NCBI GenBank assembly: GCA_963713755.1
Contig: CAVQMW010000007.1
Span: forward strand, 220,465 to 284,464
Reading direction: 5' to 3'
DNA length: 64,000 nt
Source: an uncultured delta proteobacterium
GTDB taxonomy: Bacteria; Desulfobacterota; Desulfobacteria; Desulfobacterales; CAVQMW01
Numbering within the stretch: the stretch's first letter is position 1; each line of letters starts with the position of its first letter. A program made the position numbers and the translations under genes. Below the pieces are notes generated by a model that saw nothing but the letters and a program-made list of their open reading frames with translations, did no database searches and had not been told where the DNA came from. This document shows positions 11,438 through 16,766 of this stretch, in pieces.

Positions 11438-11905
11438 CTACTTCTCGAAATAGAGTCCCTCAAACTTCTTAAGGAGATTCCGCAGCGTCTCCACTTGAGC
11501 CGGATCGATGGTCTGTTTGCACTTCATGGTCGCCACCAGCATCTGGTGCAGCACCGCCACCTTTTCGTTGTACTGGGCCTGATCGGGCTTGATGCGCTGG
11601 GTCAAAAAGTACTGGCTGACAATATTCTGAACCTCGTTGGCGTGATGCTCTTTATTGGTCACCCAGCGGATCAGCTGATTGTAGTTAACGGGCGTTTCGG
11701 CCTGGAGCGCCTTGATCTGGGCCATGGATTTCTCGATGGTGCCGGCGTGTTCGGTAATCAGGCTGACCCGCAGGGCATCGTCATAAATTCCGCAGGGTAT
11801 CTCACAATGGGCCAGGGCCGATTCGCCCAGGGGCAGCGCCACGACGCCCAACATAAAAACCAACCCCCATGCCCAACCATGCACTGCCTTAAGTGATTTT
11901 ACCAT
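11438..11905 (-). CDS. sodN: Nickel superoxide dismutase precursor
   Basis: 155 aa. HCEIPCGIYDD matches the Ni-hook HCxxPCGxY. It is preceded by a 32-aa leader ending ALA. Confidence 0.88.
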   Translation of the reverse strand: MVKSLKAVHGWAWGLVFMLGVVALPLGESALAHCEIPCGIYDDALRVSLITEHAGTIEKSMAQIKALQAETPVNYNQLIRWVTNKEHHANEVQNIVSQYFLTQRIKPDQAQYNEKVAVLHQMLVATMKCKQTIDPAQVETLRNLLKKFEGLYFEK

Positions 11906-12158
11906 AATGGCCTCCCTTCAAATTGAGTAATTTAGAGTTACGAATTTGATTTCATGGATATAGTAAGCCCTTGTCGCGGAACAGGCAAATTGTATTTTAC
12001 CACCGGGAATAACTCCATTGCGCTGGGCCGTTGCTGATGGGCAAAGGTTGAGAAATAAAGGCCTTAATGCTAATTAGAGCCAAAGCGTCAACGCTTATCA
12101 GGATCGGCCCAATCGCCGGACTTTGACTGCCCTCACCTTCAACATAGAGCTCAATACC

Positions 12159-13534
12159 ATGCCCCTAACCCGTATCCACAAGATTGTATGTCAGGGGTTC
12201 CTGATTCTCGGTTTGACTGCCCTATGCTTTTCCGAGTCCGGCGCTTTGGCCCGGATCATCTTCTGGACCACGGAGGTGGAGACGGAAAGACTAGAAATTC
12301 AAGAAGAACTCGCCTATGATTTTACCACCCATACCGGGATCCAGGTCAAGGTGATCCCAGTTTCCGAAGACCATCTCGCCACACATTGGGGTGCCGCTGG
12401 ATCGGCCGAACCGGCCCCCGATCTAATCTATCATCCCGCCTATCTGACCGCGGGGTGGGCGGACCAAGGCCTGCTGGATGTTGACTCGGCACATAAAGTG
12501 ATCCAATGCCTGGCCAGGATACCTTCAGCACCGGCGCCCTGAAGCTGGTTCAACAGGAGGGCGGCTACGGAGCGGTCCCCATAGACGGTTGGCGCCAGCT
12601 TTTGTTGTACCGCAAGGATCTCTTTGAGCAACAGGGCTTGCCGGCCCCGGACAATTGGCGGCGAATCCTGCAGGCCGCCCAAGCCCTCCACAATCCGCCG
12701 AAAATCTGGGGGTTCATTGCCGCCACGGAACCGGATAAGATCTATACCGAACAGGTCTTTGAGCATTTCGCGCTCTCCGGCGGGGTCCGGCTGAGGGATT
12801 CAGCGGGAAACATTAGCTTGAACACCCTGGAGATGATCGAAACCCTTAAATTTTATAACACCCTGGCGAAAAAGACACCGCGAGGCAATCTCGGGTTCAT
12901 TGATAGCCGGCACGAATATGTCACCGGACGAGCGGCGATGATCGAGTGGTCACCGTTTATTCTGGATGAAATTTCAGGGCTTCGCCAGGATTTGCCCGTG
13001 GTTCCGGATATTCGGCAAGGCAGGCTGGGTTACCTTGCCCAGAACACCGGGTTCCTGTCGACAATAATTGGCCCAGGGGGTCCCGCGCAGTACTATTCCA
13101 TCAACTGCCTGGGGATTGCCCGGGACGGGAACAAAGCTGACGCTCAGCAGTGGATCGAGTTTCTGCTGTCGGACGGCTACTTGAAATGGCTGAACATGGC
13201 GCCCTGGGGCAAATTGCCCATGCGCAAAGGGACGCCGGAGGATAATACCCGCTATGTCAAGGGATGGATCAATCTTGACCATGGCCCCCGCGAGACTGCG
13301 CAAATCATCGCCTCCTTTGATCAAGAAGAAGTGATGACCCTCGTGGAACACGCTTTTGAAGATTTTGACCGTTGGAGGGTCTTTGAGAACAATGACGCCC
13401 TGATCTCAAAAATCTAGGAAACCAAGGTCATTCCGCAAACCCTCAGGCGCCTGATCGACGGCGACATCAGCGCCGAAGAGGCCGCACGGATCATGAACGC
13501 CCAGGTTAACGCCCTGAATCACGCCAAGCCATGA
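12159..13534 (+). pseudogene. Family-1 ABC/sensor-associated solute-binding protein, disrupted (frameshift near 12513, in-frame TAG at 13415-13417)
   Basis: Two ORFs (12123-12542 and 12506-13417) join to a sensible sequence if 1 nt is restored at ..TGCCTGG^CCAGG... After the TAG the same frame continues for 38 codons (ETKVIPQTLRRLIDGDISAEEAARIMNAQVNALNHAKP). It ends in a TGA that overlaps the next gene's ATG as ATGA. Confidence 0.75.
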
Positions 13535-14588
13535 GAAAATCAATTTTGGTTGCACTCTTGCTGATTGTTGCGATCCTATGTATCGGCTTGTCCGTCTTCC
13601 TTATCCCCAGCAGCGAAGATGCCCCCATCCGGGATATCCGTGTTCAGCACACACGGGCAGGCGGCACATTGATCTGGTATACCTCCCTCCCCCAAATCCA
13701 TGCCGAAAGAATTGCCAACGCGTTCAGGATCGAAACCGATATTGAGGTCGAAATCGTCCGGGGGGCGACCTTTGTTATCCGAGAGCGGATCTTTAATGAA
13801 ATCCAACGCAATGCAGCCGGGCGGACGTTCTGACCCTTGCCGACATCGGCACCATCCTGGAATTGAAGAGCCAGGGGCGGTTACTCGCCCGTTTTTCCCC
13901 TCATTTTCAGAACTTTCCTGACGTCTATAAAGATGACGGCCATTGGGCCGCCTTTGCCGGATTTGGCATTTGCATGGCCTATGACGCGAGCCGAACGCAA
14001 TCGCCGCCCCAGGAGTGGACCGACATTTTGGACCCCAGATGGAGAGGGCGCATCGGACTTGAGGATATCAATGCCGGCGGGTCCCAGTATGGCCAGTACT
14101 ACCTGTTGCGGGAAACCCTGGGCCTTGAATTTTGGCAAACCCTGCTTTCCCTTCAAGAACCGAAAATATATTCCAGCACCGAAGCCCTGGCCGACGCGCT
14201 CCTGGAAGGAGAGATCGATGTCGCCGGCCAGTTCAGCATCCACACGGTTTATGACTACAAAATCAAGAAAAAAACCCCCATCGAAGGCATCTATCCGACC
14301 CAGGGAATTCCCTTTATCACTGACCCACTGGCCATTCTAAAACAATCGAGAAATGTGAAAGCCGCCGGGGAATTCTTTGACTTTCTGCTTTCAAGAGGGA
14401 CTCAAACTCTCATGCAGCGGATCAACTATAAGTACTCCCTGCGCCGCGATGTCCCGCCATTGGCGGGAATCCCCGCACTGGCCCGACTGAATATTCTACA
14501 CCCCGCCAATGGGATTGACTATGCTGCCAAGCGGCGCGCCTATTCAGAGGAATTTAATCGGCTGTTTCAGAAAAGCGAGTTAAAATGA
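13531..14588 (+). pseudogene. Fe3+/thiamine-type periplasmic solute-binding protein, disrupted by a frameshift near 13820
   Basis: ORFs 13531-13833 and 13863-14588. The frame-0 extension reads ADVLTLADIGTILELKSQG immediately after ..NAAGR of the first ORF, so 1 nt is missing in GGGCGG. A signal peptide is present. Confidence 0.75.
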
Positions 14589-16766
14589 GACCTGGCGGCA
14601 TTCATAGTAAAACCATTCTATTCATCGTCATCGCCACGGCCGTGTGCGTCAGCGGATCGGTGCTCCTGATGGCTCGAATTGCTGCAAGGCAAGCCACACT
14701 GAAGCATGAGGCGGATAAAGAAACCACCATGGAGGTGTTAACCTATGCCCTGGCCCCCATGCTCAGCCTATACGATTTTCGCCAGGCCGAAAATCTGCTG
14801 AAGACATCCCTCAAGTTAAAAATCATATCTTCGGCCGCTGTCTACAGCCACAGCGGGAAACTCATCACGTCAGTGGCCGAACACGATGCCATAGAAGCAG
14901 AACTGGAGAGGCAGACCCGCAAGATCACCACCGATCTGGAAGGCATCATCGGGAAGTTGGAGGTCGGTTTCTCAAAGGCGTATATCACCGCCAACACCCG
15001 CAGCGCGATCCGGTCCCTGACCTTGGCCCTTGTGGGCGGCTTTATCCTTCTGGGACTCGCGCTTTACGCCCTTATACGAAAGCATATCGTCAAACCCCTG
15101 GAGGGTCTCACCCAAACCGTAAACGCGTTGACGCCCGACAACCTTTCCCCTCGGGCAGACATCATCCGAAACGATGAAATCGGCATGCTGGCAAACAGTT
15201 TCAATCAGATGGCGGAAAACCTGAAAATATCCCACCTCGGGCTGCAGGAGAGCGAGAGCAAATACCGCTCCATGATGGAAGCGATGCATGATCCCGTCTA
15301 CATCTGCTCAGCAGACTATCGCATTGAATACATGAATCCGGCCATGATCCGTCTCCTGGGGCGTGAAGCCGTGGGTGAACCTTGTTTCCGTGCTGCGTTC
15401 AACCGTGAGGCGAAATGTCCCTGGTGCCGCCACGATGCGGTGCGACAGGGAGAAAGCATGGCTTTCGATATCGTGAATCCTGAGGACGATCAATCCTATC
15501 ACGCGTCCAATGCGCCGATATTCCACAGTGATGGCGGCTTTTCCGTGCTGGCGGTGTTACGGGATACGACCCAGATCAGAACCCTTGAATCGCAGTTGAT
15601 GCAGGCCCAGAAGATGGAATCCATCGGCACCCTGGCCGGGGGCATTGCCCATGATTTCAACAATATTCTCTCCATCATCATTAGGCTACGCGGACATCGC
15701 CCTCCTGGATCTGCCCCGAGATTCGGGGCCGGAGCGCAACCTGAGGAATGTACTCAATGCCGCCCAACGGGCCAAAGATCTGGTGAAACAAATTCTGACC
15801 TTCAGCCGGATGTCGGAAGAGGAGAAAAAGCCGGTCCAGATCTAGGAGATCGTCAAGGAAGCCCTGAAATTCCTGCGGGCATCCCTGCCCAGCACCATCG
15901 AGATTCGTCAAGAGATAGAGACTCAGAATGATACCGTCCTGGCGGACTTTACCAAGATGCATCAAATCCTGCTGAACCTGTGTACCAATGCCAGCCATGC
16001 GATGATGAATAAGGGCGGCGTGCTGGCGGTCCGGCTGGAGAATATCGAATTGGGAGAGGATTTTACTGCCAACACTCCGGAATTGGAGCCGGGGTCTTAT
16101 CTGAAATTGAGTGTCAGCGACACGGGCCACGGGATGTCACCCACGGTTCTCAAGCGGATATTCGAACCCTATTTCACCACTAAAGCGAAAGGTTCGGGGA
16201 CCGGCCTGGGCATGGCCGTGGGGCATGGCATCGTAAAGGGCCATCAGGGGATAATTACGGCCCACAGCGAACCGGGAAAAGGCTCCCGGTTTGATGTCTA
16301 CCTGCCGGTGATCCAAGAAGCGGCACTATCGAAAAAAGCAGCCGCCGGCCCCAATCCCAGGGGCACCGAACGCATTCTGCTCATCGATGACGAAGATGAC
16401 CTGGTGAAACTGGGAAAACAAATGCTCGAAAAATTGGGATACACGGAGGTCACGCGGACCAGCAGCATTGAAGCCCTGGCGCTGTTTCGTCAAAAGCCGG
16501 ATCAATTCGATCTGGTGATCACCGACACCACCATGCCCAATATGACCGGGAACAAGCTGGCCGAAGCGTTGATCAAGATAAACCCGAAGATCGCGATCAT
16601 TATGTGCACCGGCTACAGCGAGGAACTCGTCAAGGATAAAGCCTTGAAAATGGGCGTTCGGGCCTTTGTGATGAAACCCGTTGCCCTACACGACCTCGCC
16701 ACCATCGTGCGCGGCGTATTGGATGAACCCGCCGGCAGCCCCCAGGCGCCGGGGACCCGTTCATAG
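14585..16766 (+). pseudogene. Hybrid sensor histidine kinase (TM-periplasmic-TM-HAMP-PAS-HisKA-HATPase-REC), disrupted (frameshift near 15683, in-frame TAG at 15843-15845)
   Basis: The H-box [13 protein letters not shown] continues as GYADIALL only after a frame change (an extra A in ATTAGGC). [17 protein letters not shown] is in frame with the HATPase region (NLCTNASHAM, DTGHGM, GTGLGMAV) and the REC domain (LLIDDEDD..DLVITD). Its ATG overlaps the upstream stop as ATGA. Confidence 0.8.

Follow-up and report, generated by a model that had tools for sequence, protein, structure and literature searches.

In the window analysed here (the whole stretch of DNA, 64,000 nucleotides long) we found a gene for a Ni-superoxide dismutase (NiSOD), sodN, whose product is probably exported as a precursor, cut by signal peptidase I so that His33 is exposed, and loaded with nickel in the periplasm. 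This reading starts from what the data support directly, that is, the family and the fold of the protein, the anatomy of its leader, the presence of LepB in a genome where no sodX was found, and the mutual exclusion of signal-type leaders and sodX in the phylum sample. The comparative analysis also revealed that the signal-leader design characterises a very large NiSOD branch, of which the studied gene is an ordinary member.

The sodN gene and its start codon

The features of the gene, all on the minus strand of the window, are listed below.

11438..11905, minus: sodN gene of the signal-peptide type, coding for a 155 aa precursor, with the stop codon at 11438-11440 (ORF listing and Pfam Sod_Ni)
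11911..11916, minus: Shine-Dalgarno sequence GGGAGG, spaced 5 nt from the ATG (direct reading of the sequence)
11810..11905, minus: predicted Sec-type signal peptide, residues 1-32 (sequence, scripted partition and architecture shared by the relatives)
11783..11809, minus: Ni-hook HCEIPCGIY, residues 33-41, His33 being the residue with which the mature protein is predicted to begin (sequence and alignment)
11441..11782, minus: residues 42-155, which form the four-helix-bundle body once the enzyme is mature (AlphaFold2 model and Foldseek)

The translation reads MVKSLKAVHGWAWGLVFMLGVVALPLGESALA, followed by HCEIPCGIYDD, with the codon of His33 at 11807-11809; the ORF listing and the sequence confirm on this point the initial annotation of the region, which had described an ORF at 11438-11905 with a leader directly followed by this motif. 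A genome-wide profile search revealed that sodN is the sole Sod_Ni gene of the genome. The public gene call (P0001) begins at an internal TTG (codon 15, 11861-11863) and yields a product of 141 aa. We prefer the ATG at 11905, since a strong Shine-Dalgarno sequence stands before it and since the closest homologs (MGSYQKAV.., METLQKAF..) can be aligned as far as the beginning of the leader; the TTG appears less likely to be the correct start. In the 217-bp region upstream of sodN, a promoter and terminator scan and a search for inverted repeats gave nothing usable. Antisense to sodN, and within it, runs an ORF of 133 aa (window 11495-11896, plus strand) that has similar counterparts in 77 related loci; rather than a gene, it probably represents a shadow of the conserved coding strand.

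A divergent but genuine NiSOD

The Pfam profile PF09055 (Sod_Ni) matches the product with 112 bits (cut-off 25) over residues 29-154, corresponding to profile positions 2-125 of 127, and the NCBIfam sodN equivalog TIGR02753 gives 58.4 bits, below its cut-off of 90. The single sequence, used as a query against the PDB, returned no match at E<=0.001, and a profile built from 77 sequences matched the Streptomyces NiSOD weakly (20 bits), in an alignment that begins at the hook. In this alignment HCEIPCGIY falls on residues 1-9 of PDB 1Q0D, and within the 77 sequences H33, C34, E35, P37, C38, G39, and Y41 are invariant.

Since the sequence and profile searches of the PDB gave either nothing or a weak match, it was the fold search that settled the identity of the protein. 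The AlphaFold2 model (mean pLDDT 88.6, and 90-99 across the body) contains one helix in the leader (residues 6-28) and four in the body (43-68, 75-101, 112-131, and 135-153). When this model was compared with the PDB by Foldseek, all 16 best matches were NiSODs (1T6U, 1Q0D, 3G50), with a target-normalised TM of 0.76-0.84, an rmsd of 2.1-3.5 A and an identity of about 20% to these characterised enzymes. Because of the Pfam match, the fold match and the invariant hook, the sodN product is a genuine though divergent member of the NiSOD family, and the initial annotation of the gene as a Ni-superoxide dismutase agrees with both the profile and the fold.

A different question is whether a protein so divergent, even if exported and processed, might have a periplasmic role other than the dismutation of superoxide, such as the capture or delivery of nickel or a different redox reaction. 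The whole branch is only about 20% identical to the characterised enzymes, scores below the sodN equivalog cut-off and is without a characterised member; moreover, in the available text of one study, other exported proteins whose first residue is a histidine serve as modules that capture metals (PMC12537917). However, the hook as a whole does not vary, Tyr41 (the counterpart of Tyr9 in the Streptomyces enzyme) included, the fold agrees with that of NiSOD over its full length, and the family-wide Pfam model matches end to end, so that we consider a function of this kind improbable.

Anatomy and conservation of the leader

A scripted partition divides the leader into an n-region (MVKSLKAVH, net charge +2), an uncharged core of 18 aa (GWAWGLVFMLGVVALPLG) and a c-region (ESALA). 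The motif A-L-A directly precedes His33, with alanine at both -3 and -1; twin arginines are absent from the leader, and no cysteine is found at +1. Cys34 cannot be regarded as a lipobox cysteine because a histidine, which is disallowed there, would sit at -1 (the preceding residues being L-A-H). Judged by rules and by conservation, the leader follows the three-part scheme of Sec/signal peptidase I substrates. This is in agreement with the earlier description of a Sec-like leader in which A-L-A lies exactly before the histidine, the partition placing the site at 32/33.

The same architecture recurs in the relatives. In the nearest clusters, 113 of the 120 leaders are at least 20 residues long and strongly hydrophobic, the other seven being truncated at the N-terminus; complete ones usually have a basic start (MKK-like), a mode length of 23-24 residues and an end of the type A/V-x-A before HCE[IV]PCG. 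A, S or G occupies position -1 in 94% of 125 relatives chosen as representatives (mutually <=50% identical), and A, V, L, S, I or G occupies position -3 in 99% of them; at position -2 the residue varies and is often bulky. Of the same representatives, 95% have an n-region with a net positive charge, an RR-like motif occurs in two of the 125, and outside the -3/-1 cleavage positions the leader is not conserved. The maintenance of -3 and -1 within an otherwise unconserved leader therefore indicates that selection acts on the cleavage site itself, and the pattern, as read from the sequences, has the signature of signal peptidase I substrates whose cut is fixed at the histidine.

Some more distant relatives depart from this scheme. 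In P0266, P0274, P0314, and P0322 the signal peptide is followed by a hydrophilic linker of 20-25 residues before the hook histidine; the action of signal peptidase would leave His1 still covered in these proteins, and a second processing step would be needed. Some proteins of the signal type continue well past the C-terminal end of the body of about 125 residues, as was observed in P0321 (708 aa), P0287 (370 aa), and P0251 and P0305 (both about 300 aa).

Signal peptidases and the search for sodX

The assembly of the genome is 99.9% complete. The best genome-wide match to the sodX model (TIGR02754, cut-off 63) reaches 29.8 bits and falls inside a LepB paralog; no sodX-like or S26 ORF was found in about 1.5 kb on either side of sodN. 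In another genome of the phylum (G032, see below) the gene that is probably a true sodX likewise scores below this cut-off, so that the absence of sodX rests on relative scores, gene size and position. The initial statement that no sodX lies nearby holds, and the genome-wide check that had been proposed with it points in the same direction.

Three S26-like genes were recognized. LepB-1 (241 aa) scores 175.7 bits on TIGR02227 and possesses a membrane helix together with the SGSM and KR motifs, which bear the catalytic Ser and Lys. LepB-2 (197 aa; G000:C5:1184678-1185265, L008 1483..2076, plus strand) scores 155 bits on the same model. The third gene (G000:C3:1842572-1842796, L009 1261..1749, plus strand) is TraF-like, with 42.8 bits on TIGR02771 (cut-off 100), and was rejected as a sodX on this ground; it presumably sits among genes of conjugative transfer, which the surrounding ORFs resemble.

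LepB-2 deserves closer attention, because it might belong to a scheme in which some protease that is not SodX takes off the hydrophobic propeptide inside the cytoplasm, the enzyme remaining there like the classical NiSOD. LepB-2 retains the catalytic Ser and Lys motifs, lacks the N-terminal membrane helix, is not preceded by an ORF able to supply one, and gives the best, though weak, TIGR02754 match of the genome. On the other hand, no close ortholog of it occurs in the 400 other genomes of the phylum sample, including those bearing NiSOD; none of six NiSOD genomes of the same order (0/6) contains a LepB-2 match at E<=1e-20; and the matches found elsewhere are ordinary LepB proteins (31-50% identity), mostly in genomes without NiSOD. 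Lacking any co-occurrence with signal-type sodN, LepB-2 was rejected as a hidden substitute of SodX. Moreover, an n-region of charge +2 joined to an uncharged core of 18 residues would engage the Sec or SRP machinery regardless of LepB-2, and the signal-type leader is conserved in hundreds of species without a LepB-2-like paralog. Cytoplasmic removal of the leader appears, on these grounds, very improbable.

Signal-type leaders and sodX in the phylum

Sod_Ni was detected in 30 genomes (29 besides the studied one) of a sample of 401 Thermodesulfobacteriota. Twenty-seven of these 29 carry a signal-type leader, one is a fragment with an unreadable leader, and one (G032) has a hydrophilic leader. 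None of the 27 genomes with a signal-type leader has a TIGR02754 match above 37 bits. In G032, by contrast, the leader MYKLIKALDSKFGFDQAKA stands before HCDVPCGIYDP, sodN scores 165 bits on the classical model TIGR02753, and a gene of 100 aa, whose best family is sod_Ni_protease (54.9 bits), is found 51 nt downstream of it. Since all 27 signal-type genomes are without sodX and the sole genome with a hydrophilic leader has a sodX-like gene, the two traits are mutually exclusive in this sample. The idea, already present in the initial annotation, that signal peptidase I could expose His1 is in agreement with this exclusion, as well as with the presence of LepB-1 and the failure to find sodX in the genome.

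The NiSOD of G032 is 100% identical to a Dissulfuribacter thermophilus protein. The G032 pair (L039 949..1788) is a classical sodN-sodX pair whose named nearest relatives come from Anaerolineae and other Chloroflexi bins, which hints at a horizontal transfer.

The two kinds of leader are also well separated in hydropathy, the maximum 10-residue mean averaging 2.9 in the signal-type leaders and 0.47 in the classical ones. The classical-type propeptides, i.e., those of the relatives of the Dissulfuribacter sodN, end with A-K-A before the histidine, which fits the view of SodX as an S26 peptidase obeying the same -3/-1 rule. In the phylogenetic tree the signal-type and the classical sequences split with 100/100 support; since each of the two sets was chosen as the neighbours of one query, this split does not speak for a single origin of the signal peptide.

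Breadth of the signal-type branch

Close relatives of sodN were found in at least 562 species genomes, one genome per species being scanned; the species that share the design are for the most part anaerobes. The best 80 of them are mostly from Desulfobacterota and also include bins of Acidobacteriota, Nitrospirae, Zixibacteria, and Planctomycetaceae, as well as the cultured strains Desulfacinum infernum DSM 9756, Desulforhopalus vacuolatus DSM 9700, and NaphS2; all the readable leaders among these best 80 (78/78) are of the signal type. The nearest named homolog belongs to Desulfonema ishimotonii (70% identity). An exhaustive search of 1.84 billion representatives at 50% identity returned 863 clusters at E<=0.001, and the leader is signal-type in 134 of the best 150.

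We also compared the neighbourhoods of 110 loci, 109 of which are signal-type, by clustering all the ORFs in flanks of about 1.5-3 kb. No conserved partner (nickel chaperone, permease or protease) emerged from the ORF clustering of the 110 loci. No sodX-like ORF was present at the 109 signal-type loci, the only one of the whole set being that of G032. The second-largest ORF cluster of the 110 loci is the antisense shadow ORF of sodN.

The interpretation given in the initial annotation is supported by these sequence comparisons, with one correction: the design is not peculiar to the studied genome, being common to a very large branch and touched on in the literature. It is in our opinion likely that the signal-peptide NiSODs form a large, SodX-independent periplasmic branch, in which signal peptidase would create the metal site and nickel would be loaded outside without a helper; in anaerobes, they would represent the outer layer of a two-compartment defence, with exported SODs outside and superoxide reductases inside.

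A possible route of export and maturation

We propose that the 32-residue Sec-type leader would carry the unfolded chain across the inner membrane and that the housekeeping LepB would cut after Ala-Leu-Ala32, freeing the alpha-amino group of His33, a ligand that the Ni-hook needs. Nickel would be bound in the periplasm by the amine of His33, the amide of Cys34 and the thiolates of Cys34 and Cys38, and the four-helix subunits would assemble in the same compartment. In such a scheme, one general enzyme (LepB) would replace the dedicated SodX of the Streptomyces and cyanobacterial system, and NiSOD would clear superoxide outside the cytoplasm, with four superoxide reductases covering the cytoplasm. 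Export, the exact cleavage site, the periplasmic loading of nickel and the SOD activity are what we infer from the sequence.

The Tat route would make little sense for this protein, because the hook cannot form before cleavage. A point against the export reading is that Cys34 and Cys38 would have to remain in the reduced state after export to the periplasm, yet a DSBA-family gene is present in the genome. That the leader might instead be an uncleaved membrane anchor, or might be left without a basic n-region and a working signal by the TTG start used in the public gene call P0001, is hardly credible, given that without cleavage the amino group of His33, needed by the hook, would be blocked and the enzyme inactive, that -3 and -1 are conserved across distant relatives in an otherwise unconserved leader, that the ATG has the stronger case (Shine-Dalgarno sequence and homologs aligned to the start of the leader), and that nearly all relatives begin with a basic, MKK-type n-region.

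Comparison with known systems

According to the usual account, NiSOD is a cytoplasmic enzyme that requires its own protease, SodX. The studied protein shares with the SodN-SodX systems of Streptomyces coelicolor and S. seoulensis (1T6U, 1Q0D) and with the cyanobacterial sodN-sodX the Pfam family, the HCxxPCGxY hook and the four-helix fold, and both the classical and the studied NiSOD need His1 to be exposed by a cut after a small-x-small motif. They differ in the leader, which is a hydrophobic Sec signal of 32 residues in the studied protein and a hydrophilic propeptide of 14-20 residues in the classical one; in the compartment, which is predicted to be the periplasm in the former and is the cytoplasm in the latter; and in the protease, as sodX was not found in the studied genome and the classical system has a dedicated SodX.

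The feasibility of a Sec route to NiSOD is suggested by its laboratory production: the Streptomyces enzyme has been made in E. coli from pET-22b-pelB-NiSOD and freed by osmotic shock (PMC10685849). In this construct His1 follows immediately on a Sec signal, an arrangement that the studied gene appears to have naturally, and osmotic shock releases the periplasmic contents (PMC10685849). Unlike the studied gene, which is natural, pelB-NiSOD was engineered from the Streptomyces enzyme. With pelB-NiSOD, nickel is usually added after purification.

A signal peptide on a NiSOD has already been seen, since in the 'Signal-strapping' study (Nat Commun 2025) the signal peptide of the Roseiconus lacunae NiSOD served as a search bait with which, according to the available text, many Ni-SODs were retrieved (PMC12537917). 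As far as that text goes, the R. lacunae protein (WP_230780104.1, PF09055) has, like the studied one, a signal peptide directly before an N-terminal histidine, and the account does not address the SodX independence, the localisation or the activity of signal-peptide NiSODs (PMC12537917). The studied gene differs from it in coming from a Thermodesulfobacteriota lineage. In the literature searched we found no experimental study of the export, cleavage, nickel or activity of a signal-peptide NiSOD; term searches in the accessible text of papers on NiSOD evolution and distribution gave no mention of a signal peptide, and papers on sulfate reducers list a NiSOD gene without comment. Genome surveys of cyanobacteria have treated a sodN without sodX as possibly non-functional (PMC8346466). 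If signal peptidase I matures the branch, many "orphan" sodN genes would be functional, the insertion of nickel into the hook would be possible in the periplasm without a chaperone, and strict anaerobes would invest in a nickel enzyme against superoxide outside the cytoplasm.

Oxygen defence and genome context of sodN

The defence of the organism is of the anaerobe type: the genome contains four superoxide reductase (SOR) genes and a [NiFeSe] hydrogenase, in line with the earlier suggestion of a putative anaerobe. The large subunit of this [NiFe] hydrogenase (G000:C5:414249-415736) has one in-frame TGA, which is consistent with a selenocysteine-containing [NiFeSe] enzyme. No CuZnSOD gene was found in the genome. 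The only other SOD is of the Fe/Mn type (230 aa; G000:C3:1454458-1454748, L129 1480..2172, minus strand) and starts with MQRREFLTLAMQSGALALLGSTGLAGC, which resembles a twin-arginine (Tat) signal with a lipobox; it may be a Tat-exported lipoprotein. Since the Fe/Mn SOD, like the NiSOD, bears an export-type leader, both SODs would work outside the cytoplasm.

In sulfate reducers such as Desulfovibrio, SOD is found outside and superoxide reductase inside. The layout of SODs and superoxide reductases in the studied genome, here predicted from genes, matches this arrangement. Among Gram-negative bacteria, periplasmic SODs such as SodC (a CuZnSOD) and the Fe-SOD that Desulfovibrio vulgaris exports have the job and compartment predicted for the studied NiSOD, their folds and metals being unrelated.

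As regards nickel, a single gene for a CbiM/NikM-type transporter was found by the genome-wide check of uptake genes that the initial annotation had called for. No nickel chaperone occurs among the genes within about 5 kb of sodN, as had been noticed at first sight, and no nickel-specific gene adjoins sodN in the window. These neighbours include a transketolase-like gene, solute-binding proteins and a hybrid histidine kinase. Three of them (window 12123-13417, 13531-14588, and 14585-16766, plus strand), namely two solute-binding proteins and the hybrid histidine kinase, each appear to be split into at least two frames, the H-box region of the kinase continuing at 15645-15845 in another frame; they are either pseudogenes or the product of indel errors in the assembly.
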